A program made the position numbers and the translations under genes. Below the pieces are notes generated by a model, which saw only the letters and a program-made list of their open reading frames with translations, was not told where the DNA came from and ran no database searches. From an uncultured Dehalococcoidales bacterium (GTDB taxonomy: Bacteria > Chloroflexota > Dehalococcoidia > Dehalococcoidales > BS750m-G39), in NCBI GenBank assembly GCA_964408935.1, contig CAYPBF010000002.1:20316-84315 (forward strand): 64,000 bases of DNA, read 5' to 3'. Numbering within the stretch: the stretch's first letter is position 1; every line of letters begins with the position of its first letter. Positions 15,789-63,953 of the stretch are shown piece after piece.

Positions 15789-15792
15789 AAGC

Positions 15793-20281: not shown

Positions 20282-20369
20282 ACTTCTCCAGCCTTTTAAA
20301 TATGATAGCACGGGCAATATGTCAAGTCAATTGAGAATTTGGGGGCGGGGTAGGAAGCCGAATTTATGT

Positions 20370-20696: not shown

Positions 20697-20697
20697 T

Positions 20698-21021: not shown

Positions 21022-21052
21022 GATTACTCCTCTATCCAACCCCCTCGGCGAG

Positions 21053-21643: not shown

Positions 21644-21704
21644 ATCTACATGATAGCACTACAGCCTTTATCTGGGAACAGGTGGGGCAACCCTAAAGAG
21701 GATA

Positions 21705-21774
21705 TATAAGGGGTACCCCCCTTATAGGGTGGGTATTGGGTGGGACAATCACACGTTCGCTAAACAAGGTGGGG
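21705..21774 (+). repeat. Hairpin + four-G-run dispersed repeat, copy 5
   Basis: TATAAGGGGTACCCCCCTTATA, GGGTGGGTATTGGGTGGG (21727-21744), tail CGCTAAACAAGGTGGGG. Confidence 0.8.
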
Positions 21775-21793
21775 TGGAGGCTATAACCCTTTA

Positions 21794-21822
21794 TTGACAC
21801 TCATTACCCGCAGTTGTAGACT
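21794..21822 (+). promoter_or_regulatory. Promoter of glyA
   Basis: TTGACA-N17-TAGACT. Confidence 0.65.
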
Positions 21823-21846
21823 TTATCAAAGCAGAAAGGAAAAGCC

Positions 21847-49627: not shown

Positions 49628-50107
49628 ATGGTGCAGACGCTGACGGTAGCCGACAAAGAAGTCGACGAAATCATCGCTAAATACCGGGGTGATAAGTCGG
49701 CTTTAATTCAGGTGCTCATTGAGGTTCAGCGCCGGAAACGCTGGCTTTCCAAGGAGACTCTAAAACAGGTCAGTGATAGGCTGGGCGTAGCCCTGACCCA
49801 GATTTACCATATCGCTACCTTCTACAAGGTCTTCAGCCTGACACCACGGGGACGGCACTCGGTAACGGTTTGTTTGGGCACGGCCTGCCAGGTGCGGGGC
49901 GCGCCGCGACTTATGGATAACATCACCCAGACCCTGAAGATAAACGCCGGCCAGACCTCCGCCGACGAGCAGTTCAGCCTGGATACGGCGCGGTGCCTGG
50001 GCTGTTGCGCCATAGGGCCGGTGATGGTGGTGGACGGCGAATACTACAGCAAACCTTCTCGTAAAGAGGTCGAGCAGGTTATTTCGGCCAAAGAAATCGA
50101 GAGTTAA
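49628..50107 (+). CDS. NuoE/HydC-like [2Fe-2S] subunit
   Basis: ATFYKVF, CLGTACQVRG, CLGCCAIGP. Confidence 0.92.
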   Translation: MVQTLTVADKEVDEIIAKYRGDKSALIQVLIEVQRRKRWLSKETLKQVSDRLGVALTQIYHIATFYKVFSLTPRGRHSVTVCLGTACQVRGAPRLMDNITQTLKINAGQTSADEQFSLDTARCLGCCAIGPVMVVDGEYYSKPSRKEVEQVISAKEIES

Positions 50108-50121
50108 GAAAGGAGAGGGTT

Positions 50122-52029
50122 ATGCCTCGGTTAAACTCAGCCACAGACCTGGAAAAGCTCCGAAAGCAGTTGCAAGACAAAAACAAGGGGAAAAGAACCG
50201 TTTCGGTGACCAACGGAACGGACGGCCGGACGCGTCACAGCGAGGTCGTCTTCCGTGCCCTGAAGGATGAGATAAAAAAGCAGGGGTTGGGGGGAAAGGC
50301 GACGGTAAAGAGCACGGGGTGTCACGGCTTCTGTGAGCAGGAGCCGACGGTGCTCATTTCCCCTGAGGAAATCTGCTACGTTAGCGTGAAGCCAGAGGAC
50401 GTGCCCGAAATCGTCTCCAAGACGCTGGCTAAGGGCGAGGTTGTGGAGCATCTCCTCTACGAAGACCCGACCAGCGGGGATAAAATAGCAAAGGAGTCCG
50501 AGATACCATTCTACAAACCACAGGACAGGACCGTCCTGGGCAACAATAGACTGGTCGACATGGGCTCGATAGACGATTACATCGCCCTGGGCGGCTATTC
50601 GGCGCTGGCCAGGGTCCTTTCCGGGATGAAGCCTCAGCAGGTCATAGACGAGGTAAAAAAGTCGGGGCTGCGCGGGCGGGGTGGGGCCGGCTTCCCCACC
50701 GGGGTGAAGTGGGCGTTTTGCCGTAAGGCTCCGGGCGAGCCCAAATACGTCATCGTCAACTGCGACGAGGGCGACCCGGGGGCTTATATGGACCGCTCTC
50801 TTATGGAGGGCAACCCCCACAGCGTCCTGGAAGGGCTGCTCATCGGGGCTTACGCCATCGGCGCCGCCGAGGGCTATATCTACGTGCGCGCCGAGTACCC
50901 GCTGGCGGTGGAAAACGTGGAAACGGCCATCAAGCAGGCAGAGGAATACGGGCTGTTGGGGCAAAATATCCTGGGCTCGGGCTTCGATTTCAGGGTCTAT
51001 GTCCACCGGGGGGCGGGGGCTTTCGTTTGTGGCGAAGAGACGGCCCTTATCGCCTCGTTGGAGGGGCGGATTGGCGAGCCCAGGCAAAGGCCTCCCTTCC
51101 CCGCTACCAGTGGGCTCTGGGGCAAGCCGACCAATATAAACAATGTAGAGACCTGGGCAAACGTACCCTTGATAATCAATAAAGGCGCGGACTGGTTTCG
51201 CAGCCGGGGTACGGAGAGGAGCCAAGGCACCAAGATATTCTCGCTGGTGGGCAAGCTGAAGAATACCGGTCTGGTGGAAGCGCCCATGGGGATGACGCTG
51301 GGCGATATCGTCTTTAAAATCGGGGGCGGCATTCCCGACGGCAAGAAGTTCAAGGCTGTCCAGACAGGGGGGCCTTCGGGTGGGGTTATCCCCGAGAGCC
51401 TGCTCGATACCCCGGTGGATTACGAGGAGCTGACCAAGCTTGGGGCGATAATGGGCTCGGGCGGTATGATCGTTATGGACGAGGATACCTGCCTGGTGGA
51501 CGTGGCCCGCTATTTCGTCAACTTCCTGGCGGCGGAGTCCTGCGGGCGGTGCGTGCCCTGCCGTGAGGGGATATATCAGATGCTCAAGATACTGGATAGA
51601 ATCTGTGAGGGGAGGGGCCGGGAGGGTGATATTGAGCTGCTGCGGGAGATAGGAGAAACGGTGCGGGACTTCTCGCTCTGCGCCCTGGGCAAGACGGCGG
51701 CCAATCCGGTCTTAAGCACCATCAAGTACTTCCGTGATGAGTACGAAGCCCATATCAAAGAAAAGCGCTGCCCCGCCCTGGTCTGCAAAGAGCTGATTGC
51801 CTACTACATCGAGCCTGAGAAGTGCCAAGCCTGCTTGATTTGTTTGCGGGACTGCCCCGCCGAGGCCATCAGCGGTGACAAGAAGGTCGTTCACGTCATC
51901 GACCAGACGAAGTGCACCAAGTGCGGGACGTGCCTTGAGGTCTGTCCGCCGCGCTTCAGCGCCGTGACCAAACTTTCCGGGGTGAAGGTGCCGGAACCGG
52001 TTAAAAAAGCGGCAGTAGTAAGGAAATGA
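50122..52029 (+). CDS. NuoF/HydB-like NADH-binding flavoprotein with C-terminal 2x[4Fe-4S]
   Basis: GLRGRGGAGFPTG, CDEGDPGAYMDR, GAGAFVCGEETAL, GGPSGG, ESCGRCVPCREG, two ferredoxin motifs. Confidence 0.95.
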   Translation: MPRLNSATDLEKLRKQLQDKNKGKRTVSVTNGTDGRTRHSEVVFRALKDEIKKQGLGGKATVKSTGCHGFCEQEPTVLISPEEICYVSVKPEDVPEIVSKTLAKGEVVEHLLYEDPTSGDKIAKESEIPFYKPQDRTVLGNNRLVDMGSIDDYIALGGYSALARVLSGMKPQQVIDEVKKSGLRGRGGAGFPTGVKWAFCRKAPGEPKYVIVNCDEGDPGAYMDRSLMEGNPHSVLEGLLIGAYAIGAAEGYIYVRAEYPLAVENVETAIKQAEEYGLLGQNILGSGFDFRVYVHRGAGAFVCGEETALIASLEGRIGEPRQRPPFPATSGLWGKPTNINNVETWANVPLIINKGADWFRSRGTERSQGTKIFSLVGKLKNTGLVEAPMGMTLGDIVFKIGGGIPDGKKFKAVQTGGPSGGVIPESLLDTPVDYEELTKLGAIMGSGGMIVMDEDTCLVDVARYFVNFLAAESCGRCVPCREGIYQMLKILDRICEGRGREGDIELLREIGETVRDFSLCALGKTAANPVLSTIKYFRDEYEAHIKEKRCPALVCKELIAYYIEPEKCQACLICLRDCPAEAISGDKKVVHVIDQTKCTKCGTCLEVCPPRFSAVTKLSGVKVPEPVKKAAVVRK

Positions 52030-52038
52030 GGTGGCAAA

Positions 52039-52677
52039 ATGGCCGAAGTTAGCTTGATTATCGATGACATCCTAGTTAAAGTCGACAAAGGGGCCACAAT
52101 CCTTGAGGCGGCGCGAAGCGCTGGTATCGATATCCCCACCCTCTGCTCCCACGAGGGGCTGGCTCCCTACGGCGCCTGCCGCCTTTGTACCGTGGAGATA
52201 AAGAGGGGGCAGCAATCACAGCTGGTGGCTTCTTGCGTTTATCCGGCGGAGGAGGGGATCATCGTTAAGACGGAATCGAAACCGGTGACCAGGGGGCGCA
52301 AGATGCTCCTGGAGCTGTTGTGGGCCCGTGCCCCCGGCGTCCAGGCGTTACGGGAATACGGCGTAAAGTACGGCATATCCGCCGTCCAGGAGGGGGGAGC
52401 TGACTACGGTATGGTTCCCGACATAGACGGAGTCCGAACCAAGTTCGAGGTGGAGCCCACCTTTTGTCTGCTTTGCGGGCTTTGCGTGCGCTATTGTAAC
52501 GAGGTGAAAAAGAAGAACGCCATCGGCTTCGTCGGACGGGGCACGGAACGGGAAGTGGTCTTTTTCCCCGAGTTAGCGGCTAACGGCTGTAGCCAGTGCG
52601 AGGACTGCTACCCGCTTTGCCCCACCGGCACGCTGCCTTTATACTACACACTGGCCGAGGTGCAGCAATCCGCCTAA
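52039..52677 (+). CDS. Short NuoG/HydA-N-terminal-like Fe-S protein, no catalytic domain
   Basis: IPTLC...GACRLCTVE...SC [2Fe-2S]; CLLCGLCVRYC and CSQCEDCYPLCP [4Fe-4S]; only 212 aa. Confidence 0.88.
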   Translation: MAEVSLIIDDILVKVDKGATILEAARSAGIDIPTLCSHEGLAPYGACRLCTVEIKRGQQSQLVASCVYPAEEGIIVKTESKPVTRGRKMLLELLWARAPGVQALREYGVKYGISAVQEGGADYGMVPDIDGVRTKFEVEPTFCLLCGLCVRYCNEVKKKNAIGFVGRGTEREVVFFPELAANGCSQCEDCYPLCPTGTLPLYYTLAEVQQSA

Positions 52678-52793
52678 GCATAGAACCGTTCTGAGTTAAC
52701 CCTTCTTCTAACCAGCAGGACCAGCGTCCCCATTATCACCAAAACAACTACGATGGCAACGGCCTTACGTCCTGATTTTCGCTCTACCGCCAC
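52674..52793 (-). CDS. 39-aa single-TM peptide ending the hdrA operon (not in ORF track)
   Basis: GTG start with AGAGG RBS; (M)AVERKSGRKAVAIVVVLVIMGTLVLLVRRRVNSERFYA*. Confidence 0.5.
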   Translation of the reverse strand: MAVERKSGRKAVAIVVVLVIMGTLVLLVRRRVNSERFYA

Positions 52794-52835
52794 ACAAAAG
52801 CCTCTTTAGTGACTAGACCTCAATACAAGTGATTG

Positions 52836-53927
52836 TTAATCGACAACGGCGGCGAATTCGTCGGGCTTGAAGGCGGTGATGGGCAGTTCCTCCTCCAGGT
52901 CCCTCCCTGGCAGATAACCAAACGATTCCTGGACGGCCCCGCCCGTTTTCAGGGCAACTGCCCAGAGCGGGATATCGACCGGACACACATCGGAACATTG
53001 GCCGCATCCGATGCAGGTCAGGCTTACGTGGAATAACCTTACCAGCTGATAGAATATGGGGGCGGGCAGAATCTGTCCGCATCCGTTTCTCTCCAGCTGG
53101 GCTTCGTAGTAGTTCGGCTCGTGCTCATCGCCCCCAGAATCGAAGAAACAAACATGGCAGTAACAGGCGGGACAGACCTTACTGCAATTACGACAGCCTA
53201 TGCATTTCTCAAAGAGTTTGTTTACATCGAAGCTGTCGACGCCGAGTTCCTCGAACATCTCTTGCTTTCTGGTTTGCCTCTTGCTCCGCAGGCCATCAAT
53301 TGTTCCCGATTCGACCTCTTCCCCACTGACCTCGCCCTTAAAGCCTTCGGCAAACTCCTCGCCCTTTTCCGTATTTAGGTGTAGCAGGCATTGTTTGGCG
53401 GCATTGTTGCCAATCAGAGACAGAGTGATGTCGGCGTTATAGGGTACGAAGTGCTCACAAGCGGCACAGGCGGGCCTGATATCGGAGGCAATCTCGGCCT
53501 TTTTCACCGCCTCCCAATACGAGGGAAGCTTCTCCTCAATATTCCCGTCAACAGACATTTCCAGCGGATAGACCCCGCCGCAGGTCGAGCTAATCAATAA
53601 GAGGTTATCCAGGCTTCCCTGTTTTCGCTTCATGAGCTCGGTAAGTGCCCTCAGTTCGCAGGGCCTGACCACGGCGGCGATGGGTCGAGCGGCGGCTTCC
53701 ACCAGGGTAAGACGGGAAAGCACTTTGGCGGCACTGGCCGGCATCAAGGGGAAAAATGGCCTGGCTTCTTCGAGCGCCGCCGGGTCGGTAATCAACGAAT
53801 AGACAACGCCTTCATCCGCTTTTTCCAGGGTAAAAACCCCCTTGACCTTGCCGCTTTCTAGCAGGAACTTCAAAAACTCCAGCAAACATTCTTCCGCGCC
53901 CTTATTCAACTTCAACGCCTTGGGCAT
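52836..53927 (-). CDS. FdhB/FrhB-like flavo-Fe-S protein (paralog 2)
   Basis: AAVVRPCELRAL; CIGCRNCSKVCPACYCHVC; CIGCGQCSDVCP. Confidence 0.8.
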   Translation of the reverse strand: MPKALKLNKGAEECLLEFLKFLLESGKVKGVFTLEKADEGVVYSLITDPAALEEARPFFPLMPASAAKVLSRLTLVEAAARPIAAVVRPCELRALTELMKRKQGSLDNLLLISSTCGGVYPLEMSVDGNIEEKLPSYWEAVKKAEIASDIRPACAACEHFVPYNADITLSLIGNNAAKQCLLHLNTEKGEEFAEGFKGEVSGEEVESGTIDGLRSKRQTRKQEMFEELGVDSFDVNKLFEKCIGCRNCSKVCPACYCHVCFFDSGGDEHEPNYYEAQLERNGCGQILPAPIFYQLVRLFHVSLTCIGCGQCSDVCPVDIPLWAVALKTGGAVQESFGYLPGRDLEEELPITAFKPDEFAAVVD

Positions 53928-53929
53928 CT

Positions 53930-55078
53930 TTAAGCCTCCTGTTTGGCGGAGGTCTCTGCGTAAGACTGCTCCACTTCTTCGAACTCCTTCTCTTGATAAA
54001 CCCTTAAGGGCAGCGGTTCCTCGCGGCTCCTGCCGGGCACATAGTCAAATTCCGCCTGGTTTTGGTTGCCCACCAGGCTGAAGACCTGGGCAACCGGGAT
54101 GGCGGTAGGGCAGGCATCTTCACAAGCTCCGCATGATACGCAGGAGAGGGACATATGCAGCATACGTCCGATATGGAAGAGGAGGGTCTCGGGCGGAAGC
54201 CTCAGCCCACCGCCCATTTCGGCTCTGTCTAGGTAGTCTTCAAAGGCGAACTTCATATCACTTGAATCGAAGAAACACTGCCGGCAGTAGCATATGGGAC
54301 AGACCCGCATACAGTTGTGGCAGTTTATACACTGGCTAAAGGTTTTAAGCAGGTTATCCAATCCGGTGGCCTTGGACTTGAATTCCTGCATAAATTTCTG
54401 ACGTTCCCCTTTTCTCTTCTCGGTCAGGGATTTCACCGTCTGTTCCCAGCCCGATATGTCCTGGCTAGCTTCAAGGCCGAGCTTTTCCAGGATAGTTTCA
54501 CCTTTCGGGCTATTAGGGATGAGGAAAATACCGCCCTTGGCCCCCAGTATCCCTATATGCAGGTCTTCGGCGCCAGTGGCCGAGAATTTATCGCATATCT
54601 GGCAGGTGGGCCTTAAGTTCTCGCTGGCCTCCCCCTTTTGGACCTTGGCGAATACCTCCTCGGCTTTCTTGGCGTCCTTGGCCCAATCGGCCAGCGGCAA
54701 CGCGCCGGGACAATCGATGGTGATTAGGAATATGTTATCTAAGTCCACCTGCCCCAGTTTGAATAGCTCGACGGTGGCTCTGGCTTCACAGGGTCGCACC
54801 ATAGCGGCTATCTTCTTCTTGCCCTTGCCGTGTCCGGTAAGGCTGGAAATGGCTTTAGCTCCCTGAACGGTCATAACCGGGGGGAGGGGATAGGCGTTCT
54901 CTAGTAGCGACTCGTCTCGAATCAGTAAATAGCTGAACGAATCGGTCCCTGGCGCCCTTACGGGTATGAGGACGGCGTCAAAACAACCCTTGCCGATTGC
55001 CTGTTTAAGGAAAGCTATGACCTTTTCTCTTGGTCCGCCTTCGGCAGCGAAAAGCGCACCCTTTCTATCGACAGCCAT
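53930..55078 (-). CDS. FdhB/FrhB-like flavo-Fe-S protein (paralog 1)
   Basis: AAMVRPCEARAT; CINCHNCMRVCPICYCRQC; CVSCGACEDACP; AGAGGT RBS before ATG 55078. Confidence 0.8.
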   Translation of the reverse strand: MAVDRKGALFAAEGGPREKVIAFLKQAIGKGCFDAVLIPVRAPGTDSFSYLLIRDESLLENAYPLPPVMTVQGAKAISSLTGHGKGKKKIAAMVRPCEARATVELFKLGQVDLDNIFLITIDCPGALPLADWAKDAKKAEEVFAKVQKGEASENLRPTCQICDKFSATGAEDLHIGILGAKGGIFLIPNSPKGETILEKLGLEASQDISGWEQTVKSLTEKRKGERQKFMQEFKSKATGLDNLLKTFSQCINCHNCMRVCPICYCRQCFFDSSDMKFAFEDYLDRAEMGGGLRLPPETLLFHIGRMLHMSLSCVSCGACEDACPTAIPVAQVFSLVGNQNQAEFDYVPGRSREEPLPLRVYQEKEFEEVEQSYAETSAKQEA

Positions 55079-55090
55079 ATCAGACACCTC

Positions 55091-56797
55091 TTATCGCAAT
55101 ACCTCTTTAAGCTCTTGGTAAATCTGGGGGAAGGTAAAATGCTTCAGCCTGGCGGCTCCGGAGGGACAGGCGGCGGCACAGTTACCGCAGCCGTGGCACA
55201 AGACCTCGTTCACCACCGAGACCATCCTGTCTTCGTCGAAGCTAATAGCACCGTAGGGGCAAACATCGAGGCAGGTCTTACAACCGGTACAGAAATTCTC
55301 CGATATCTCGGATACCCTGACCTCTAGCTCCAGCTTCTTCCCCGGAACCAGCGCCGAGAGTATTTTACCCGCCGCCGCCTCCGATTGGACTATGGACTCG
55401 GCGATACTCTGAGGCCCCCGGGCGCAGCCGATAACGAATACCCCCTCGACGGCGGAGGCTATCGGGCCAAGTAACTGGTGCTCTTCGACTAAAAAGCCTC
55501 TATCGTCATGGGGGATTTTTAGCATTTCGGCGAACTTATTGGCATCGCCGGCGGGCTCCATCGCCGGCAGGAGGATAACCATGTCCGCCGCCAGCTCGCC
55601 TTTCTTACCGGTCTCCGTTTCGTATTTGATGGTGGGGCCCTTGCCGTTGCCGCTGACCTCGGTTTTGGCCGCGCGGATATAGTCGGCGCCCAAGCCCCTG
55701 GTATCTTCGTAAAACTTCTGGAAAGACTTGCCCGGAATAACCAGGTCGGAGTAGAAATGGGTCACCTTGACCTGGGGCAGTTGTGATTTAAGCATGCGGT
55801 CGAATTTGAAGGAGTAGGCGCAGCATACCTTGGAGCAGTAGCCCTTCTCCTCCCTGCCGGCGCAATGAATGATAGCCACCGACTGGGGAGGCTTACCGTT
55901 TTTAAGCAGGATTTTGCCGCCGGTAGGCCCTTCGGGGATATTCATCACCTCGAACTCTAAACCAGTATAAACATCGTCTATCTTCCCGTAACCATACCGG
56001 GGCAGACCGCTGAGGTCAAAAAGCTCGAAGCCGGTAGCCAGTATCACCGCCCCGACATTGAAGTCGAGCTCTTTGTCTTCAGCGTCCTCAGCTTTCTTTA
56101 CCACCTTTACCTCAAAATTACCCAGGAAGCCCAGAATCTGCTCCACCTCGCTCTCGGTAAGCACCTGGATATGCTTATTGTCGAGGAGGCCCTTTATCTC
56201 CTTGGTTATCAGGCCTGGGCCGGATTCCATGTTGACGAAGAGCTGGCTCAAGCCCTTCACCTTACCGCCCAGCGAAGAGCTTTTCTCCACCAGATAGACT
56301 TTTCTATCCGGTGACGCCAGCACCTGGCTGGCTTTGATGCCGGCAATGCCGCCGCCGATTACCAGCACGTCGGGATTGCACTCAATCTCCTTGTTCTCTA
56401 GGGGGTTGTGATAGCCCACCCGGCTGATGGCGGCTCTTATTTGTCTTATCGCTTTATCGGTAGCTTCGGCTCCGTCCGGCGTGACCCAGGCGCACTGTTC
56501 GCGTATATTGGCCAGCTGGAATAGCTGCGGATTGAGGCCCGCTTTTTGGCAGACATTCATGAAGGTAATCTCGTGCTGCTTTGGCGAGCAGGCCGCCACC
56601 ACCAGGTGCGTCAGGCCGTGCTCTTCGATAGCCTGCTCGAGGAATTTCTGCCCGTCGCCAGAGCATAAGAGTTTATACTTCTCGGCAACAACTACATCTT
56701 TGAGGGGGTTAACGGCCTCAATTACCTGGTCAACATCTACCTTTTCGGCGATGTTGGTGCCGCATTCGCAAACGTATACGCCTATTCTCTTGGCCAC
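55091..56797 (-). CDS. hdrA: HdrA-like flavoprotein (N-terminal domain + FAD domain + C-terminal ferredoxin, no inserted ferredoxin)
   Basis: VYVCECGTNI, VAACSPK, ANIREQC, IGGGIAG, GPTGG, YCSKVCC, CTGCKTCLDVCP/CHGCGNCAAACP. Confidence 0.9.
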   Translation of the reverse strand: MAKRIGVYVCECGTNIAEKVDVDQVIEAVNPLKDVVVAEKYKLLCSGDGQKFLEQAIEEHGLTHLVVAACSPKQHEITFMNVCQKAGLNPQLFQLANIREQCAWVTPDGAEATDKAIRQIRAAISRVGYHNPLENKEIECNPDVLVIGGGIAGIKASQVLASPDRKVYLVEKSSSLGGKVKGLSQLFVNMESGPGLITKEIKGLLDNKHIQVLTESEVEQILGFLGNFEVKVVKKAEDAEDKELDFNVGAVILATGFELFDLSGLPRYGYGKIDDVYTGLEFEVMNIPEGPTGGKILLKNGKPPQSVAIIHCAGREEKGYCSKVCCAYSFKFDRMLKSQLPQVKVTHFYSDLVIPGKSFQKFYEDTRGLGADYIRAAKTEVSGNGKGPTIKYETETGKKGELAADMVILLPAMEPAGDANKFAEMLKIPHDDRGFLVEEHQLLGPIASAVEGVFVIGCARGPQSIAESIVQSEAAAGKILSALVPGKKLELEVRVSEISENFCTGCKTCLDVCPYGAISFDEDRMVSVVNEVLCHGCGNCAAACPSGAARLKHFTFPQIYQELKEVLR

Positions 56798-56807
56798 TTT
56801 GCAACCT

Positions 56808-58091
56808 CTATTTCGATGATGAAAGTATTCTTCCCGCCGTCGCTTCCGCTTCGGCTACCGTCTCGGCAATATCCTTGGGCCCCTGGGCGCAGCCGGCGAT
56901 AAATATGCCGTCCTGGACAGTGGTTATGGAACTAAGGTCTGGTTCCTTCTCGCTAAAGAACCCGTCCTTATCCTGCTGGATGTTCAGAATCCCAGCCAGC
57001 TTGGCTGAATCGTGCCCCGGTTCCAGGGCCGGGTTGAGAATAACCATTTCCACGGTAAGGCTTTTCTCCTGGCCGTCTTCGGTTTTATGTTTAATAGCCA
57101 GTTCCTTCCCCGACTGGGAAACACCGGTTACCGTAGCCCGAACGAAGTCAACCCCGCTCTCTTTTACCTCTTGATAGAAATGCTGATAGTCTTTACCGGG
57201 AATACAGAGGTCGGAGTAGAAGTGGGTTATCTTCACCCCGGGCAGTTTTGCCTTAATGAAGTGGGAAAGCTTTAGAGAGGCCATGCAGCATACTGAAGAG
57301 CAATAGCCCTTCTGGTCACGCCCCACGCAGTGGATAATGGCCGCCGACTTGGGCGGCTGGCCGTTCTTTAGAGTAATCTGTCCCTGAGTGGGCCCGTTGG
57401 AGGCGCATATCCTCTCCACCTCCATGGCGGAGTAGACATCGCTGAGCTTCTTATACCCATATTGGGTGGTCTGACCAACGTCGAACGATGCGAAACCGGT
57501 GGCGACGACGATGGCGCCTACCTTGAGCTCCAGATCCTCGTCCTTCTGGGTGTAGTCGATGGCCTCAAACATACAGGCTTCCTGGCAGGCCTTGCACTCC
57601 TTCTTCCCCTTGAAGCGCAGGCAGTTCTCGGTGTCGATAACGGGGACATTAGGCAGCGCCCCGGCGCAGGGAATATATATCGCCTTACGCTTAGCCAGCC
57701 CTTCCTCGAATTCGTTATCCACCTCCACCGGGCAGGGGTCAAAACAGGCGTTGCAGCCGATGCAATTGCCCAGGTCAACGTAGCTCGCCTTTTTCCTGAC
57801 TTTCACCGAAAAATCGCCCGCCGAGCCGCTGACGGATTCGACCTGGCTTAGTCTGAGCAGCTCGATATTTTCGTCGGCTAAAAGCTCCTGCTGTTTGGGG
57901 GCTATCATACAGGTGGCGCAGTCCATGTTGGGGAATACTTCTTCAAATTTTATGACATTACCGCCGATGTACGAGCTCTTTTCGACGAGGTATACCTTTC
58001 TACCCGAGTTGGCCAGGAGTAGGCTGGTCTCAATACCAGCAACACCGCCCCCGATAACCACTACCGGGGTATTCTGTCTTTTATCAGTCAT
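56808..58091 (-). CDS. hdrA: HdrA-like flavoprotein (FAD domain + inserted ferredoxin; lacks N-terminal and C-terminal domains)
   Basis: IGGGVAG, FPNMDCATC, CIGCNACFDPCP, CKACQEAC, GPTQG, YCSSVCC, GPKDI. Confidence 0.88.
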   Translation of the reverse strand: MTDKRQNTPVVVIGGGVAGIETSLLLANSGRKVYLVEKSSYIGGNVIKFEEVFPNMDCATCMIAPKQQELLADENIELLRLSQVESVSGSAGDFSVKVRKKASYVDLGNCIGCNACFDPCPVEVDNEFEEGLAKRKAIYIPCAGALPNVPVIDTENCLRFKGKKECKACQEACMFEAIDYTQKDEDLELKVGAIVVATGFASFDVGQTTQYGYKKLSDVYSAMEVERICASNGPTQGQITLKNGQPPKSAAIIHCVGRDQKGYCSSVCCMASLKLSHFIKAKLPGVKITHFYSDLCIPGKDYQHFYQEVKESGVDFVRATVTGVSQSGKELAIKHKTEDGQEKSLTVEMVILNPALEPGHDSAKLAGILNIQQDKDGFFSEKEPDLSSITTVQDGIFIAGCAQGPKDIAETVAEAEATAGRILSSSK

Positions 58092-58104
58092 TTCTTTCCA
58101 CCAT

Positions 58105-58530
58105 CTATAGCGAAGTCTTTGTCTTCATGGGGTTGGGCCCCATTCCCGTAATCTGCTGAGCAAATTCGGTGGCTACGTCTTTGAATCTCTGTCCTTCCGA
58201 CGCCGACACCCAGGCAAGCATGAGCCGGTCCGAGTCCAGCCCCAGGGTTTCAAAGGTGTTCTTGAGAAGAGCAAACCGGCGGCGGGCATAGTAGTTCCCC
58301 TCCCGGTAGTGGCAGTCACCGGGGTGGCAGCCGGCAACGAGCACGCCGTCAGCGCCATGCAGTAGCGCCGTGGCCACCAGAACCGGGTCGACCCGGCCGG
58401 AGCACATCACCCTAATTACGGAAAGGGATGATGGCACTTCCAGCTTGGTTGCCCCGGCCAGGTCGGCGCCGGCATAGGAACACCAGTTACAAAGGAAGCC
58501 GACTATTTTGGGGGTGAAACCTGCTTCCAT
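58105..58530 (-). CDS. mvhD: MvhD/FlxD-like [2Fe-2S] subunit (copy 2)
   Basis: FLCNWCSYAGAD, RVMCSGRVD, GCHPGDCHY. Confidence 0.93.
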   Translation of the reverse strand: MEAGFTPKIVGFLCNWCSYAGADLAGATKLEVPSSLSVIRVMCSGRVDPVLVATALLHGADGVLVAGCHPGDCHYREGNYYARRRFALLKNTFETLGLDSDRLMLAWVSASEGQRFKDVATEFAQQITGMGPNPMKTKTSL

Positions 58531-58542
58531 AAAACCTCCGGG

Positions 58543-58767
58543 CTAAAACTGGATTTGCGCCTTGTGTTTGCCCCCGCCTTCGTCGACGCAAAAGAGTAGC
58601 GTCTTATTCATCTTGCCGCACCAAGCCTCAACGTCTTTGGGGAAAGACTCGCAGTCAGCTATAACCTCTACGGTGTCTCCCGCCGGGATGCTTTTTGCCA
58701 TGGCGGCTAATTTAAGCACCGGCTGCGGGCATTTAAGCCCTAAAACATCCAATGTATGTAGTGCCAT
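58543..58767 (-). CDS. tusA: Sulfur carrier TusA/SirA family
   Basis: LDVLGLKCPQP (CPxP), VEAWC. Confidence 0.92.
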   Translation of the reverse strand: MALHTLDVLGLKCPQPVLKLAAMAKSIPAGDTVEVIADCESFPKDVEAWCGKMNKTLLFCVDEGGGKHKAQIQF

Positions 58768-58807
58768 AATTGCCTCCTTAAATCACCCTGATTTAGTTTT
58801 AGCTATT

Positions 58808-59161
58808 TTAGAAAGAGAAGGTTATGTTAGCGTCCGAAATCGAGGCTATAAACGTAGTGGCGCCGATAATTTCCACGCCTTCTCTAAAATCCCCGGGTTT
58901 AAGGTCCTTGTTCTCCAGCGCCAGCTCACAGACGTAAATCTTGCCGCCCAGTGAGAGTATGCCGTCGTAAAGCTCTACGATGTTGGGTAGACCCTTGCCC
59001 GAGATTTTCTCCAACTCGCCCTTGACCATGGTCGGTGCACCACCGGGGCAACAGAATATGGTGACATCGTCCCCGCTTGCCGCCGCGCTGGAACCCAAAA
59101 TCATGGGCGGGTAAATGTTGGGGGGTGCCGAACCGTTAACCGTGATTGCTACTTTAGCCAT
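58808..59161 (-). CDS. DsrE/DsrF-like sulfur relay protein
   Basis: YPPMILGSSAAASGDDVTIF, GKIYVCELAL, EGVEIIGATTF. Confidence 0.85.
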   Translation of the reverse strand: MAKVAITVNGSAPPNIYPPMILGSSAAASGDDVTIFCCPGGAPTMVKGELEKISGKGLPNIVELYDGILSLGGKIYVCELALENKDLKPGDFREGVEIIGATTFIASISDANITFSF

Positions 59162-59218
59162 GTGAACCCTCCTTATTTAAAAATCTTTTTTATGTTCAGG
59201 CTAGATGCCAAAAACATC

Positions 59219-59677
59219 TCAGCTAACCGCCGCTTCCTGCTTCCTACCGCTATCTCGAGACACTTTTCTTACAATTGGATTGGGGCCAAGCTCCTTTATG
59301 GTTTGGGTAAAACTTTTCACCGTTTCGGCTATTTTGGGACCTTCGGAGGCGGCTATCCACTCTAATCTGAGCCTGTCCTTGCCGATACCCATGACTTCCA
59401 AGAAAGGAAAAAGTCCCGTCATCTTGCGGCGGGCATTGAGGTTTCCTTTCTGGTAATGGCAGTCTCCGGGGTGGCATCCGCAAACCAGAACGCCGTCGGC
59501 GCCGGCAATAAAAGCCTTGAGAATCATTCGCTCGTCGACCCGACCGGAGCACATTACCCTTATCACTTTAACGTTGGGGGGATACTTCAGGCGCGCGGTA
59601 CCAGCTAGGTCAGCGCCAGCGTAGGAACACCAGTTGCAGAGGAAACCGACTATTTTTGGCTCGAAATCGCCCGTCAT
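59219..59677 (-). CDS. mvhD: MvhD/FlxD-like [2Fe-2S] subunit (copy 1)
   Basis: FLCNWCSYAGAD, RVMCSGRVD, GCHPGDCHY. Confidence 0.93.
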   Translation of the reverse strand: MTGDFEPKIVGFLCNWCSYAGADLAGTARLKYPPNVKVIRVMCSGRVDERMILKAFIAGADGVLVCGCHPGDCHYQKGNLNARRKMTGLFPFLEVMGIGKDRLRLEWIAASEGPKIAETVKSFTQTIKELGPNPIVRKVSRDSGRKQEAAVS

Positions 59678-59755
59678 CACACTTCTTGGGCGCAGCACTA
59701 TAGCTCGGCCTTATTATGTGGTAAAATTAAAGAGCTAAAGAGCTCTACCCAAAGT

Positions 59756-59785
59756 ATAATACCCTACGGGGGTATAGCATGTCAA
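59756..59785 (-). promoter_or_regulatory. Leftward promoter of the mvhD-dsrE-tusA-hdrA operon
   Basis: Minus strand TTGACA-N18-TATTAT. Confidence 0.6.
59759..59775. promoter_or_regulatory. CsoR/CstR-family operator
   Basis: ATACCC-TACGG-GGGTAT palindrome: AT-rich arms flanking C/G tracts, the type bound by CsoR-family repressors; next to the csoR-like gene. Confidence 0.8.
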
Positions 59786-59817
59786 TACTTACATTAAGGG
59801 GCTAAGTGAGAGGTGAA

Positions 59818-60099
59818 ATGGTAGAAGAACCGGTATCTAAAGAAACATTATTACAGCGTCTAAAGAGGGCGGAGGGCCAGATTCGCGGTATCGAAAAGAT
59901 GATTGAAGCCGGCCGCCAGTGTGAAGACGTGGTTACCCAGCTGGCGGCGGTGCGCTCCGCCATCGAGGGTACTGCTGCCCTTCTCCTGAAAAACTACATG
60001 AGAATCTGTTTCCAAGGTGAGACGCCGACAGAGTGCGTTGACGTGGAATCCCTGGCCCGGGCCATCGCTATCTGGGGCAGGGTTCATGTTGGGGACTAG
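59818..60099 (+). CDS. CsoR/RcnR/CstR-family repressor (His ligand replaced by Tyr)
   Basis: RLKRAEGQIRGIEKMI, RQCEDVVTQLAAVRSA, LKNYMRIC; AGAGGT RBS. Confidence 0.9.
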   Translation: MVEEPVSKETLLQRLKRAEGQIRGIEKMIEAGRQCEDVVTQLAAVRSAIEGTAALLLKNYMRICFQGETPTECVDVESLARAIAIWGRVHVGD

Positions 60100-60501: not shown

Positions 60502-60945
60502 ATGGGTAGACAGCCTATGTGGCGGCGGGTGGACTCTATCCCCCGGGTGACTTATTTCAAACCGGCGGGCGTTCCCCTGGCCAACCTTGAGGAAGCACGC
60601 CTCTCCGTCGAAGAAGCCGAGGCGATTCGGCTCAAGGACATTGAGGGGCTGGGGCAGGACGGGTGCGCCCAAAAGATGAAGGTGTCGCGTAGCACCTTCG
60701 CCCGCATACTGCTATCGGCGCGGCAGAAGATGGCCGACGCCCTGCTCAACGGCAAGGCGATAAGAATCGAGGGGGGCAACTACGAGATGTCGTTACGCCG
60801 CTTCCGCTGCCGTAACGGCCATGAATGGGAGGTCCCCTTCGAAAAGATGATAAAGGAGCCGCCGGAGCTTTGCCCCACCTGCAGCACGGCCGAAATCATG
60901 GCGCTTTGGCCGATGGGATACGGGCGGGGCCGACGCGAATGGTAA
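60502..60945 (+). CDS. DUF134 HTH protein with C-terminal Zn-ribbon
   Basis: GRQPMWRRV, FKPAG, EAEAIRLKD, MKVSRSTFARIL, ADALLNGKAIRIEGG; CRNGHEW...CPTC. Confidence 0.9.
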   Translation: MGRQPMWRRVDSIPRVTYFKPAGVPLANLEEARLSVEEAEAIRLKDIEGLGQDGCAQKMKVSRSTFARILLSARQKMADALLNGKAIRIEGGNYEMSLRRFRCRNGHEWEVPFEKMIKEPPELCPTCSTAEIMALWPMGYGRGRREW

Positions 60946-60967
60946 GAAACCATTAACTAGCCGAACG

Positions 60968-61702
60968 ATGAAAGTCCTCGATGATTTAATCTCAACACTG
61001 CACATGGACGCCGAGGTAAAGGACATCCGAATGGGCCTCTTTCACACCGCTGTCCTGACGCGTAACTGCGGGCTGGCGGCGACGCTACCCCGCGACGCCC
61101 TCCAACAGGAGTCGCCATCAATTGGGGAATCAGGGCGCCTCCTCGAGAAAAGCGCCCCGGAACTGGTGAGGATGTCTTACGCAGATGAAATACTAGAAGC
61201 CGCTATTGGCATGGCCGCCATCAACTCGCTGCTCGAGATTAACAACGAAGAATGTCAGGAGCTTAACGCCAGCCAGCTTATTGCCGAAAAGGGCAAAGGG
61301 AAAAAAGTGGCTGTTATCGGCCATTTCCCCTTCACCCCCCACCTGCGGGAGGTGGTGGATAAACTCTGGATAATCGAGAAGAACCCGCGTGCTGGTGACT
61401 TACCCGAGGCCGAGGCGGAGAATCTTATCCCCCAAGCTGACGTCGTCGGCATCACCGGCACGGCTTTCACCAACCACACTATCGAGAGGCTGCTTAAATT
61501 ATGCCCTTCCAAAGCCTACGTGATCATCATCGGCGATACCGCCCCCCTCTCCCCGGCGCTCTTCGACCACGGCATTAACGCTATATCGGGAACTAAGGTT
61601 AACGACCCCCAGCTGGCGATGAACTGCGTCAGCCAAGGGGCGACCTATCCCCAGATTAAAGGAATCCGCCAGCTAACGATGATGAATGGCGGAAGGAGGT
61701 AA
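60968..61702 (+). CDS. DUF364 (Rossmann-like) family protein
   Basis: AAIGMAAINSLL, KVAVIGHFP, GITGTAFTNHT, GDTAPLSP. Confidence 0.85.
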   Translation: MKVLDDLISTLHMDAEVKDIRMGLFHTAVLTRNCGLAATLPRDALQQESPSIGESGRLLEKSAPELVRMSYADEILEAAIGMAAINSLLEINNEECQELNASQLIAEKGKGKKVAVIGHFPFTPHLREVVDKLWIIEKNPRAGDLPEAEAENLIPQADVVGITGTAFTNHTIERLLKLCPSKAYVIIIGDTAPLSPALFDHGINAISGTKVNDPQLAMNCVSQGATYPQIKGIRQLTMMNGGRR

Positions 61703-61705
61703 ATT

Positions 61706-62008
61706 ATGTATTACGGAATGGGACGAGGCCGAGGCGCCGGAAAAGGTGGAAGCGGAGGCATGGGCTTCGGTTTTCGGGGTGCATCACCTCCCTGGCCCTA
61801 CGTAGGTAGAGGTAGAGGCGGACTGCCGCGCTGCGGCTATTACCTGAGCGGCCCCGGTGCGGCCCCAACCACCCCCTTTACACCCCCGACCGGGGAAGCC
61901 GAGCTCGACTCACTGAAGAGCCAGGCGGAGGCACTCAAGGGGCAGCTGGAGCAGATTGAAGCCAGGATGCGCCAGCTTGAGGATGAGAAAAAGGGAGGCA
62001 GTTTATGA
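61706..62008 (+). CDS. DUF5320-like Gly/Arg-rich protein with C-terminal coiled coil
   Basis: GFRGASPPWPYVGRGRGGLPRCGY; ELDSLKSQAEALKGQLEQIEARM. Confidence 0.75.
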   Translation: MYYGMGRGRGAGKGGSGGMGFGFRGASPPWPYVGRGRGGLPRCGYYLSGPGAAPTTPFTPPTGEAELDSLKSQAEALKGQLEQIEARMRQLEDEKKGGSL

Positions 62009-62625
62009 AAATCGCGGTATCAGCTAATGGTCCCAGCCTCGATGCCGAGGTTGACCCACGCTTCGGGCGCTGCGCCTATTTTATCATCGCCGACCCCGAG
62101 ACTATGGAGTTTGAGGCGGTCGATAACGCCAGCGCCATGGCCGCCGGCGGGGCGGGCATATCCGCCGCCCAGATGGTCGTCCAGAAAGGCGTAAAGGCTG
62201 TTATCACCGGTAACCTTGGGCCCAACGCCCACCAGGTCCTGTCCGCCGCCGGCATCGAGATGATAACCGGCGCTTCAGGGAAAGTAAAAGACGCCATCGA
62301 AGGCTACCGCGCCGGTAAGCTCAAAGCCAGTTCCCAGCCCAACGTCCCCGACCACTACGGCATGGGCGGTGGTGGTGGTGGTGGTATGGCCGGCGGCATG
62401 GGACGGGGCATGGGTGGCGGCATGGGACGCGGTATGGGCGGCGGCATGGGTAAAAGGTGCGGGCGAGGTGGCGGCATGGGCTTCGGCATGAACCCGCCTA
62501 TGGCTTCTTCATCCCAGAGCCCCGCTTCGGAAATCGATGGGCTTAAGGCCCAGTCGCAGGACTTAGCCCAGCAACTCAACGACATCCAGCGACGTATCGA
62601 GGAGCTGGAAAAGGAAGGGAACTAA
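62005..62625 (+). CDS. NifB/NifX (IssA-like) domain protein with Gly/Met-rich tail and coiled coil
   Basis: MKIAVS, DPRFGRCAYF, GAGISAAQ, GNLGPNA; tail (GGMGRGMG)n. Confidence 0.9.
   Translation: MKIAVSANGPSLDAEVDPRFGRCAYFIIADPETMEFEAVDNASAMAAGGAGISAAQMVVQKGVKAVITGNLGPNAHQVLSAAGIEMITGASGKVKDAIEGYRAGKLKASSQPNVPDHYGMGGGGGGGMAGGMGRGMGGGMGRGMGGGMGKRCGRGGGMGFGMNPPMASSSQSPASEIDGLKAQSQDLAQQLNDIQRRIEELEKEGN
62392..62451 (+). repeat. 24-nt tandem coding repeat (GGMGRGMG) x2.5
   Basis: GGCGGCATGGGACGGGGCATGGGT / GGCGGCATGGGACGCGGTATGGGC / GGCGGCATGGGT. Confidence 0.8.
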
Positions 62626-62634
62626 AGAGGAATT

Positions 62635-62808
62635 ATGCCTGTCTGGAAGTATACTAAGGAGCATAAGGAAGTAACTGTAGATGAGATAGATAAGGTTCTG
62701 AAAAGCCTGGTCTGTTTCAAATGCGGTAAGGAGCTTCATTCCGATGAATGCCCCTTTGCTAGGTTGAGGGTGGAGCTAATCGCCCTAAAAGAATCAAAGA
62801 AGGGGTAA
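62635..62808 (+). CDS. 57-aa protein with CxxC-H-C motif (not in ORF track)
   Basis: MPVWKYTKEH...LVCFKCGKELHSDECPFARL...; AGAGG RBS. Confidence 0.55.
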   Translation: MPVWKYTKEHKEVTVDEIDKVLKSLVCFKCGKELHSDECPFARLRVELIALKESKKG

Positions 62809-62858
62809 AAGCGATACTAATCTATGTAATCTAAGCGACCCTTTTTGGAGGTGAATTT

Positions 62859-63086
62859 ATGCCTAGAGGAGACGGAACGGGCCCTCCCTGGGGGAGCGGA
62901 CCGGGAACAGGCAGAGGCGGGGGAAGAGGCGGCGGCAGGGGGCGGATGGGGGGCAATCGCCCCGGCGCCGGCCCCAGCGGTGAATGCGTCTGCCCCGCCT
63001 GCGGAACAAAGGTAGCCCACCAGAGAGGCACCCCCTGCTACGATATTAAATGCCCCAAGTGCGGGGCCAAGATGACCAGAGCCTGA
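62859..63086 (+). CDS. DUF5320-like protein with Cys4 Zn-ribbon
   Basis: MPRGDGTGP, GRGG repeats, CVCPACG...CPKCG; GGAGGT RBS. Confidence 0.85.
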   Translation: MPRGDGTGPPWGSGPGTGRGGGRGGGRGRMGGNRPGAGPSGECVCPACGTKVAHQRGTPCYDIKCPKCGAKMTRA

Positions 63087-63953
63087 ATGATAATATCTAT
63101 CGCCAGCGGTAAAGGCGGCACGGGCAAGACGCTGGTAGCCACCAGCCTAGCCCTTGCCCTCAAGGATGACTATAAGGTGAAGCTGCTCGACGGTGATGTC
63201 GAGGAGCCTAACGATCACGTATTTCTAAAACCCGATATCAGTGGCAGTGAGCCTGTCTTTATCCCTGCCCCCAAGATAGACGAGGCCAAGTGCACCCGCT
63301 GCGGTAAGTGCGCCGAGGTCTGCGCCTACAACGCCATCGCCGTCCTCGGCGAGCACGTACTAACCTTCCCCGAGCTCTGCCACGGCTGCGGCGCCTGCAG
63401 CTACCTTTGCCCGGAAAAGGCGATAACCGAGGAAAATAGGCGAACGGGCGTGGTGGAGTGGGGAGATGCCGATGGCCTTGATTTCGTTCAGGGCAAGCTC
63501 ACCGTCGGCGAGGCCATGCCCTCGCCCGTAACCAGGCAAGTTAAAAAACATACTGATAGCGACGGTATCAATATAATCGACAGCCCGCCGGGGACATCCT
63601 GCCCGGTGGTAGAGGCTATCGAGGGCAGCGACTTCTGCCTGCTGGTTACTGAGCCCACCCCTTTCGGCCTCAACGACCTTGTCCTAGCCGTAGAGACGGT
63701 GCGGCAGCTGAGCATAGACTGTGGCGTCATCCTCAACCGCGCTGGCGTCGGCGACAATAAGGTGGAGGATTATTGCCGTAGCCAAAATATACCCATTTTG
63801 CTTACCATACCCCTCGATACCGAGATTGCCCGCCTGTACTCTCGAGGGATAACGCTGGTCGAGGGCAGGCCGGAATGGAAAGAAAAATTCGTCGGGCTCT
63901 TCGAGAGTCTCAAGGAGACAATAGGTGCGAGAGATCGTAGTCTTAAGCGGTAA
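63087..63953 (+). CDS. MinD/ParA-like P-loop ATPase with 2x[4Fe-4S] insert
   Basis: ASGKGGTGKT, DGDVEEPN, CTRCGKCAEVC, CHGCGACSYLCP, DSPPGTSCP, VTEPTPFG. Confidence 0.92.
   Translation: MIISIASGKGGTGKTLVATSLALALKDDYKVKLLDGDVEEPNDHVFLKPDISGSEPVFIPAPKIDEAKCTRCGKCAEVCAYNAIAVLGEHVLTFPELCHGCGACSYLCPEKAITEENRRTGVVEWGDADGLDFVQGKLTVGEAMPSPVTRQVKKHTDSDGINIIDSPPGTSCPVVEAIEGSDFCLLVTEPTPFGLNDLVLAVETVRQLSIDCGVILNRAGVGDNKVEDYCRSQNIPILLTIPLDTEIARLYSRGITLVEGRPEWKEKFVGLFESLKETIGARDRSLKR

Follow-up and report, generated by a model that had tools for sequence, protein, structure and literature searches.

Enzyme complexes built around HdrA are the classic example of flavin-based electron bifurcation, and to our knowledge all of those that are well understood end in HdrBC or in a defined reductase. 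Here we describe an operon of this family that drops HdrBC. It lies in a 64 kb stretch of DNA from an uncultured Dehalococcoidales bacterium (contig CAYPBF010000002.1; the whole stretch is called the window, and positions are counted along it unless a related locus is named), on the minus strand between 52.8 and 59.7 kb, and consists of eight genes, mvhD1-dsrE-tusA-mvhD2-hdrA1-hdrA2-fdhB1-fdhB2. Throughout the related loci compared below, this cassette nearly always has a TusA/DsrE pair, and its control is persulfide-sensor-like. Judging from the sequences, we give about an even chance to the reading that it encodes a soluble Fe-S flavoprotein of HdrA type, induced by sulfane sulfur, which reduces persulfide bound to TusA and DsrE and probably bifurcates electrons to ferredoxin.

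Among the systems already described, Elp-Hdr (ElpABC-HdrABC, 8RVU) and Fdh-Hdr (FdhAB-MvhD-HdrABC, 7BKB) share with the cassette an FdhB-family subunit, an MvhD adaptor and an HdrA with flavin adenine dinucleotide (FAD) and Fe-S motifs; HdrA1 and HdrA2 align with methanogen HdrA at E-values of 1e-94 to 1e-118. In Elp-Hdr, ElpB (an FdhB homologue with FAD and four [4Fe-4S] clusters) passes electrons from F420H2 to HdrA together with ElpC, an MvhD homologue (PMC12350162). The cassette differs from both complexes in lacking HdrB, HdrC, FdhA and ElpA and in having two FdhB and two MvhD proteins, a split HdrA, TusA and DsrE. An HdrB with two CCG domains and an HdrC, as in methanogen HdrABC, are thus missing, and since the hosts of the cassette are not methanogens, CoM-S-S-CoB is not the acceptor. 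Adjacent complementary HdrA paralogues are common to the cassette and to the tandem or fused HdrA clusters of anaerobic methanotrophic (ANME) archaea (HdrA5/6, 12/13 and 3/4), some of which also carry FdhB without FdhA, and MvhD (PMC9012536). TusA and DsrE have no occurrence in that paper. The cassette described here is found mostly in bacteria and Thermoplasmata. The fused relatives that we found run from an A1 half to an A2 half, the opposite of the ANME fusions, and the likeness to ANME is drawn from the domain pattern. FdhB genes without FdhA had been drawn beside hdrA/hdrL-mvhD already in 2009, for Desulfobacterium autotrophicum (PMC2702500).

Other likenesses come from sulfur metabolism. 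In sHdr (hdrC1B1AHC2B2, lbpA, dsrE3, tusA), too, Hdr genes are linked to TusA and DsrE-family carriers, and both sHdr and the cassette are under ArsR-type regulation in some lineages. Unlike sHdr, the cassette has MvhD, FdhB-like subunits and a long methanogen-type HdrA with ferredoxin domains, and its hosts are strict anaerobes; no HdrB1/B2, HdrC1/C2 or lipoate-binding protein (LbpA) was found among the operon proteins or the Pfam-tagged genes of the related loci. The cst operons of Staphylococcus, Enterococcus and Streptococcus also have a two-Cys repressor of CstR type and an ATACC...GGTAT operator, and they place sulfurtransferases and a persulfide-removing enzyme under that repressor (CstA, rhodaneses, CoA persulfide reductase); CstA alone unites several sulfurtransferase domains, TusA- and DsrE-like ones among them. 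In our case, the controlled enzyme is an eight-subunit Fe-S flavoprotein of Hdr type, and not a persulfide dioxygenase, a sulfide:quinone oxidoreductase (SQR) or a reductase of the coenzyme A disulfide reductase (CoADR) type. QmoABC of sulfate reducers brings together two HdrA paralogues (about 420 and more than 550 residues) and an MvhD-like module in sulfur metabolism. By comparison, the cassette is without QmoC or another membrane subunit, has no aprAB in the operon or among its annotated neighbours, encodes MvhD as a separate protein, and adds FdhB-like subunits, TusA and DsrE.

Each module of the cassette is known, and its core of tandem HdrA, FdhB and MvhD has a precedent in ANME. As far as we could find, what is undescribed is an HdrBC-less complex of Hdr type with a near-obligate linkage to TusA/DsrE, persulfide-sensor-like control and a wide spread among uncultured anaerobes. 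No description of the cassette was found in the titles, abstracts or inspected passages of the papers brought up by full-text searches; subscription reviews lie outside that search, and they may contain an earlier mention. An earlier note on this DNA had presented the operon as a candidate new system that matches neither Flx-Hdr, sHdr nor methanogen Mvh/Fdh-Hdr. The combination with TusA and DsrE we did not find described; the core is preceded by the ANME tandem HdrA (PMC9012536) and by the arm of Elp-Hdr (PMC12350162).

Open reading frame (ORF) analysis, Pfam and NCBIfam confirm all eight genes (Table 1), in the order and with the domains given in the earlier note; from 5' to 3' the gaps between them are 57, 40, 12, 13, 10, 3 and 2 nt, and the ATG at 59677 is the likely true start of mvhD1. 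The note had counted as a further operon gene a small ORF with one hydrophobic stretch (sTM). This 39-residue ORF exists, yet nothing similar is found 3' of fdhB2 in nine related loci, and we rejected it as a member of the system. The reported lack of hdrB, hdrC, hydrogenase and fdhA is borne out for the operon and for the window as a whole: within the 64 kb there is no CCG-domain (HdrB-like) ORF, [NiFe] hydrogenase, FdhA, YeeE or rhodanese, Pfam finds no CCG domain in the operon proteins, and no ORF with a CCG pattern lies inside any of 83 related cassettes.

These cassettes come from a survey made of three genome scans and three contig look-ups, which yielded 174 loci, all from metagenome-assembled genomes (MAGs) or single-cell genomes; the loci (labelled L018 and so on) were scored using the window proteins as queries, and copies were counted as distinct. 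The arrangement dsrE-tusA-mvhD-hdrA1-hdrA2-fdhB1-fdhB2(-mvhD), which we call type I, is represented by 83 distinct copies. According to the record titles, its hosts include Dehalococcoidia, Thermoplasmata, Methanomassiliicoccales, Aminicenantes, WOR-3, TA06, Cloacimonadota, Fermentibacteria/Aegiribacteria, Aerophobetes, Stahlbacteria, Latescibacterota, Spirochaetales, Chitinispirillaceae, Mcinerneyibacteriota and others; the spread covers more than 12 phyla, mostly uncultured and mostly bacteria plus Thermoplasmata; the closest relatives of the window cassette are in Dehalococcoidia MAGs. Upstream sequence of at least 1.4 kb is available for 75 copies; 73 of these (97%) include both tusA and dsrE. 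Among the 71 copies with downstream sequence, fdhB1 is found in all and fdhB2 in 70, and a second mvhD follows fdhB2 in 51; in Dehalococcoidia and a few others this second copy heads the operon instead. The full gene set is found 3' of the DsrE-subfamily gene in 65 of 75 cases. The earlier note had asked for such a neighbourhood survey, its proposal depending on tusA and dsrE not being absent from most homologous operons, and on this point the counts agree with it. The MAG titles name as sources cold seeps (CSMAG), the Zodletone spring and White Oak River sediments, which we take to be sulfidic, anoxic habitats. The split mvhD and hdrA ORFs of the Methanomassiliicoccales loci were considered as possible selenocysteine sites and rejected, because the pieces overlap in different frames, a sign of frameshifts.

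HdrA1 aligns with residues 146-561 of M. wolfeii HdrA (5ODC_A, E = 4e-89). It consists of a thioredoxin reductase (TrxR)-like FAD domain with the inserted ferredoxin domain, and is without the N-terminal domain and the C-terminal ferredoxin domain. In the alignment to 5ODC_A it keeps the equivalents of Cys194 and Cys197 (C58 and C61, in DCATC), of E356 (as E226) and of K409 (the K of CCMASLK), as well as the cluster motif C-x12-C-x3-CC. HdrA2 has the converse composition: an N-terminal Fe-S domain and a C-terminal 2x[4Fe-4S] domain (Pfam Fer4 match at residues 496-548) flank a TrxR-like FAD domain that lacks the ferredoxin insertion. It matches HdrA in the PDB (E = 5e-118) in two stretches that bypass the inserted domain; FVNMESGPG takes the place of the HdrA motif FPxxDCxxC, and its sequence has the equivalents of E356 and K409 in GLEFE and CCAYSFK. 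E356 and K409 are key FAD residues of HdrA (PMC12054007). The pair therefore has the TrxR-like FAD domain, the C-x12-C-x3-CC motif and the two FAD residues of methanogen HdrA, distributed in the manner of the ANME tandem proteins, in which one paralogue has the N-terminal domain without Cys197 and the other Cys197 without the N-terminal domain. Complementary tandem paralogues of this kind in ANME archaea were read by Chadwick et al. (2022) as an obligate heterodimer (PMC9012536), which provides a published structural rationale for the hdrA'/hdrA'' pair correctly recognized in the earlier note. HdrA1 and HdrA2 are thus complementary half-featured paralogues, and they would form a single asymmetric HdrA dimer, in which the N- and C-terminal domains of HdrA2 would be the donor arm, the inserted domain of HdrA1 would reduce ferredoxin, and two FAD sites would be present with the bifurcation-associated residues kept.

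FdhB1 matches FdhB (9t1s_M, E = 2e-33) and ElpB (8rvu_E) over its full length, and FdhB2 likewise matches FdhB in the PDB (E = 1e-32); with the PF04432 model, whose cut-off is 23.3 bits, FdhB2 scores 39.6 bits and FdhB1 a borderline 23.7 bits. Both proteins have the features of the FrhB/FdhB family, namely an N-terminal four-Cys cluster and a C-terminal CxxCxxCxxxCP...CxxCxxCxxxCP domain. There are 15 invariant Cys in FdhB1, and the conserved Cys of the two proteins are all accounted for by Fe-S motifs. With a mean pLDDT of 57 (below 50 in the C-terminal half), the AlphaFold2 model of FdhB2 was used for the fold family only; its Foldseek matches are FdhB, ElpB, FrhB, the F420 half (N-terminal) of Fsr, and HCAR. 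While FrhB-family proteins are known for F420, the fold is shared by ferredoxin-dependent reductases such as HCAR. The two MvhD proteins match FlpD with E-values of 1e-51 to 1e-53, and five Cys are conserved in the leading, internal and trailing positional classes. MvhD2 is orthologous to the internal copy of other phyla (69% mean identity), and its gene separates tusA from hdrA1 in 77 of the 83 cassettes. MvhD1 is the 'extra' leading copy typical of Dehalococcoidia, with 70% mean identity to the leading copies of relatives; the idea that it is a relocated trailing MvhD was not supported, as its identity is 55% with trailing and 54% with internal copies.

The genes that might supply electrons vary. 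Hydrogenase genes of the [NiFe] mvhD-mvhG-mvhA type follow the cassette directly or closely in about 10 of the 83 copies, directly so in L155 (15850-18342) and L124 (15228-16674) and also in L036, L032, L081, L164, L044 and L050; in about six of these loci a gene for a HycI-like maturation protease is also present. This arrangement points to H2 as an electron donor for the hosts concerned. The cassette of L022 is preceded by a NuoG-HdrA fusion and, immediately upstream, by NuoE/NuoF-like genes; NuoE/F-like genes also adjoin the sister cassettes introduced below as type II in L094 and L098, and a GltD/NfnB-like gene is a frequent neighbour. The constant part is DsrE-TusA-MvhD-HdrA1-HdrA2-FdhB1-FdhB2, around which the possible donor modules change. 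The proposal that the FdhB-like subunits are the two-electron port is in keeping with the precedent of ElpB (PMC12350162); a universal role of F420 is doubtful, given the Mvh, NuoEF-like or GltD-like alternatives of some relatives. In the window, a set of genes unmentioned in the earlier note converges on fdhB2 and encodes a NuoE-like protein of 159 residues, a NuoF-like protein of 635 residues (N-terminal 2Fe-2S, C-terminal 2x[4Fe-4S]) and a NuoG-N-terminal-like protein of 212 residues, with Fer2_4 and Fer4 domains. The NuoF-like protein scores 523.5 bits with TIGR01959, below the cut-off of 558.65, and 414 with PRK13596, above the cut-off of 389. The set has no catalytic partner in its own operon; it is similar to the NADH modules that bifurcating enzymes have, and it may dock to the Hdr complex. 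As a conserved partner it was rejected, as it is absent from the close Dehalococcoidia loci and sporadic elsewhere, although an association may still exist.

The two carriers keep both persulfide-carrying cysteine positions. Cys13 of TusA, within LKCPQP, shows 100% conservation; its counterpart in the alignment with E. coli TusA is the LRCPEP cysteine, Cys19, which carries the persulfide. Cys39 (in ADC) and Cys60 (in LLFC) are each 98% conserved among 52 homologues, E. coli TusA having an Asp at the Cys39 position; these extra cysteines of the subfamily may make a redox-active di- or trisulfide. The DsrE-like protein belongs to a distinct subfamily with 70-77% identity across phyla, in which Cys78 (VCELAL motif) is invariant in 52 sequences; its nearest solved structure is 3MC3. 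Further sulfur genes are found in and around some relatives. A second TusA (83 residues) and a YeeE/YedE protein (Sulf_transp, 345 residues) are encoded between hdrA2 and fdhB1 in several Dehalococcoidia, Aerophobetes and Thermoplasmatales loci (among the Dehalococcoidia, L036, 8459-9810; L158, 12805-16110; L017, 3929-6328; L006 and L007), and rhodanese proteins are encoded inside the operon in L158 (four domains) and L017 (two domains). In L018 and L019 a TauE gene lies beside the repressor, as tauE does beside the cst regulator of S. aureus.

A CsoR-family repressor gene is divergent from the operon, with a likely start at the ATG at 59818, preceded by the ribosome binding site AGAGGTGA. The best match of its product among solved structures is the validated persulfide sensor CstR of S. 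pneumoniae (7MQ1, E = 3.5e-13; PMC8643695). With the CsoR fold it combines Cys at both sensing positions (Cys39 and Cys68, 29 residues apart) and no His at the Cu-ligand position of Cu-CsoR, which is taken by Tyr64, and by Leu in 7MQ1 (PMC8643695). The regulator is CstR-like, and its inducer would be sulfane sulfur. Its candidate operator is a GC-tract inverted repeat that resembles the S. mitis cst operator ATACCCTTATGGGGTAT (PMC8643695), and it occupies the spacer of P1, the top promoter match of the region (11/12), between the -35 and -10 elements. The earlier note had already linked the divergent repressor and its operator to persulfide sensing. The same layout is kept in six other Dehalococcoidia loci (seven with the window; L028 has one mismatch in the left arm), the proteins of which are only about 60-90% identical, and for this reason repression through promoter occlusion is well supported. 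Downstream of the operator a second motif pair, TTTACCACA ... (G)CTATAGT (59697-59725, minus strand), is kept in most related Dehalococcoidia intergenic regions; its score in the promoter scan is weak. It may serve as a further promoter independent of the operator, or the opposite strand (TGTGGTAAAAT) may provide the repressor gene with its extended -10 element. Outside Dehalococcoidia the usual regulator is of ArsR type with two conserved Cys (28 of the 83 cassettes), encoded co-directionally 36-101 nt upstream of the cassette in most cases. The nearest solved relatives of these proteins include BigR and SqrR; orthology with either is only partly supported, the positions of the conserved Cys being different. 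The occurrence of two unrelated families of thiol-based regulators before the same cassette argues for a thiol-reactive inducer, for example sulfane sulfur.

These results can be brought together in the following scheme for the reduction of carrier-bound persulfide. Sulfane sulfur (persulfide, polysulfide or thiosulfate-derived sulfur) would inactivate the repressor, the sulfur would be loaded on TusA and DsrE as cysteine persulfides, and the complex would convert the carrier-bound sulfur to H2S. The entry point for electrons would be the flavin of an FdhB-like subunit; some lineages might instead draw them from the Mvh hydrogenase or from the NuoEF-like or GltD-like neighbour. With exergonic persulfide reduction in the place of heterodisulfide reduction, the HdrA flavin could thereby drive the second electron to ferredoxin. 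Speculatively, the other FdhB-like subunit or the second MvhD would lead electrons out to the carriers in lieu of HdrBC. For strict anaerobes of sulfidic sediments, the benefit would be detoxification of sulfane sulfur together with energy conservation.

A number of observations weigh against this scheme. In no subunit can a site for cleavage of an S-S bond or a persulfide be recognized, as there is neither a CCG/non-cubane domain nor a redox CxxC adjacent to the flavin. Of the 75 DsrE-subfamily genes whose downstream sequence is long enough, 6 have no cassette behind them, and there is no cultured host among the 177 locus rows from the three genome scans. As our view of the genome is that of the 64 kb window, HdrBC may be encoded elsewhere in it. 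Most host phyla are not known to use F420, which is at odds with F420 as a donor through the FrhB-family proteins. Finally, in the sister cassette (type II) a fused HdrA is followed by mvhD-fdhB1-fdhB2-mvhD, and tusA and dsrE are both missing. The sulfur relay therefore belongs to a single branch, and the redox core can do without the carriers. Overall, the gene set, the absence of HdrBC and the CstR-like control on which the earlier note had built its interpretation hold, and its sTM and the lack of precedent for the core do not.

The fused HdrA of type II is approximately 975-1060 residues long. Its hosts are Anaerolineales, Ignavibacteria, Zixibacteria, Gemmatimonadota, Sumerlaeota and Desulfobacterales (among them Desulfonema limicola and Desulfococcus MAGs), in loci L059, L068, L069, L073, L074, L076, L078, L083, L086, L087, L094 and L097-L099, and also L038, L053, L056, L082 and L090; a subtype with shorter FdhB directly adjoins type I cassettes on several contigs. 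That FdhB1, FdhB2 and MvhD are retained there without TusA and DsrE would be expected if the complex were a general redox-balancing transhydrogenase (F420H2/NAD(P)H:ferredoxin or H2-linked, bifurcating or confurcating), with the two FdhB-like subunits as pyridine or deazaflavin ports, and with TusA and DsrE not as substrates but serving regulation, protection, or Fe-S supply and repair under sulfide stress. The lack of a recognizable S-S-cleaving site speaks for the same account, as do the equal likeness of FdhB1 and FdhB2 to the F420H2-oxidizing FdhB/ElpB and the Mvh, NuoEF-like and GltD-like donor genes near some loci. Nevertheless we consider a transhydrogenase of this kind rather improbable, although it is the best of the alternatives: tusA and dsrE accompany the split-type operons across their more than 12 phyla with the regularity reported above, highly conserved and with invariant active-site Cys, genes for a transporter and for rhodaneses stand within the operon in relatives, and persulfide-sensor-like regulators of two families are hard to reconcile with a housekeeping transhydrogenase.

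According to a second alternative, the cassette would be the donor and bifurcation half of a larger system, and an HdrBC or a DsrK/HdrD-like partner encoded elsewhere would act on TusA/DsrE, or on a DsrC-like protein, by reducing a disulfide or trisulfide that had formed there. HdrB is indeed the sole established site of such chemistry in the family (PMC12350162), and HdrB-like ORFs with two CCG motifs flank about 10 of the 83 cassettes, for example in L058, L077, L130 and L170. These nearby hdrB-like genes, however, are accompanied by additional hdrA genes, the pattern expected of separate hdrABC sets, and no HdrB-like ORF occurs in the operon, in the window or in most of the 20 kb loci. The asymmetric HdrA dimer and the second MvhD also suggest another exit route, and we regard a remote HdrBC-type partner as quite unlikely.

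It is also conceivable, with very low probability, that the substrate is selenium rather than sulfur, and that carrier-bound selenium is reduced or trafficked for the synthesis of selenoproteins or selenouridine. Pairs of TusA-like/YedF and Sulf_transp/YedE proteins have been linked to selenium metabolism, a TusA2-YedE/YeeE-family pair is inserted in some relatives, and reviews list HdrA, MvhD and DsrE-like proteins as recurrent selenoprotein families. TusA does match the YedF models NF008242 and TIGR03527 of NCBIfam weakly, but the TusA model scores higher, with all of these scores under their cut-offs; the rhodaneses, TauE and the CstR-like and ArsR-type regulators indicate sulfur, and selD and selA were not seen in the loci examined, in which no systematic search for them was made. 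The least probable account is an oxidative, sHdr-like one, in which sulfane sulfur would be oxidized, for example in sulfur disproportionation, with electrons going to ferredoxin, NAD or F420: TusA and DsrE-type carriers feed sHdr (PMC6067878; Tanabe et al. 2024, as cited in PMC12054007), and TauE, of a sulfite exporter family, stands beside the regulator in L018 and L019, but the HdrB, HdrC and lipoate-binding proteins of sHdr are missing, the HdrA proteins match methanogen HdrA (E = 1e-94) far better than they do the sHdrA-type 6TJR (E = 5e-34), and on thermodynamic reasoning the reduction of ferredoxin by sulfide or sulfane sulfur needs an additional driving reaction.

Table 1. Features of the cassette and of its immediate surroundings, in window positions.
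Feature	Positions	Strand	Description
mvhD1	59219..59698	-	PF02662 FlpD, E = 2.5e-53; MvhD/FlpD [2Fe-2S] adaptor
dsrE-like	58808..59161	-	117 residues; PF13686 (DrsE_2) and PF02635 (DsrE)
tusA	58543..58767	-	74 residues; PF01206 TusA, E = 1e-16
mvhD2	58105..58530	-	PF02662 FlpD, E = 1.9e-51
hdrA1	56808..58091	-	427 residues; HdrA model positions 139-556 matched
hdrA2	55091..56797	-	568 residues; HdrA N-terminal domain, TrxR domain and C-terminal ferredoxin domain
fdhB1	53930..55087	-	FdhB/FrhB-family Fe-S (flavo)protein
fdhB2	52836..53927	-	FdhB/FrhB-family Fe-S (flavo)protein
CsoR-family CstR-like repressor gene	59806..60099	+	Divergent from the operon; PF02583, E = 3e-25
CsoR/CstR-type operator	59759..59775	both	Inverted repeat, ATACCCTACGGGGGTAT on +, ATACCCCCGTAGGGTAT on - (59775-59759)
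Operon promoter P1	59756..59785	-	TTGACA, 18 nt spacer, TATTAT
sTM ORF	52674..52793	-	39 residues, single hydrophobic stretch; doubtful, probably outside the system
NuoE-, NuoF-, NuoG-N-terminal-like genes	49628..52677	+	Convergent with the operon; candidate NADH module

Beyond these features, the window is ordinary chromosome, with genes for UvrB, FtsK, RNase J, SecA, ValRS, CoaBC, a thiolase and an ABC transporter. At 60502-63953 on the plus strand are genes for DUF134, DUF364/DUF4213 ('heavy-metal chelation'), DUF5320, a NifX-like protein (Nitro_FeMo-Co) and a CbiA/ParA ATPase with a 2x[4Fe-4S] insert. Similar NifX-like and CbiA/Fer4 genes are also near the cassette in the Dehalococcoidia loci L018/L019, in L020/L021 (Aminicenantaceae by protein name, their contig records being labelled otherwise) and in L052, and this cluster may be a recurrent neighbourhood of the cassette. 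In L018 (11283-13605) and L019 (11416-13103), Dehalococcoidia loci that are approximately 58% identical to the window, fdhB2 is followed by genes for a polyferredoxin-MvhD fusion and for DUF5981 (formerly MTHFR_C, MetV-like); a few kb further on there is a CoA-disulfide-reductase-like flavoprotein of 441 residues, a homologue of which was found with phmmer near 7 of the 83 cassettes. The G+C content drops to 0.43-0.48, from approximately 0.57 elsewhere, at about 12000-16000 (which includes, at 13483-15339, the gene of a 618-residue NACHT-domain protein), 8000-10000 and 20000-22000; these stretches may be horizontally acquired islands.

The reduction of carrier-bound persulfide by an HdrA-type complex is directly testable, with eight soluble proteins, defined cysteines and a defined operator. 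It is possible, although we would lean towards doubting it, that the cassettes represent a widespread unrecognized class of HdrBC-independent bifurcating enzymes, which would use TusA/DsrE persulfide as high-potential acceptor, be switched by persulfide sensors and conserve energy in fermentative anaerobes of sulfidic sediments. If this is true, bifurcating enzymes would have a new acceptor chemistry, and reduced ferredoxin would be gained from the reduction of elemental sulfur, polysulfide or thiosulfate-derived sulfur. Dehalococcoidia, Aminicenantes, Thermoplasmata of the MBG-D type, WOR-3 and others would then possess a cytoplasmic, energy-conserving route in the sulfur cycle, one that surveys based on the dsr, sox, psr and sqr marker genes would have missed.

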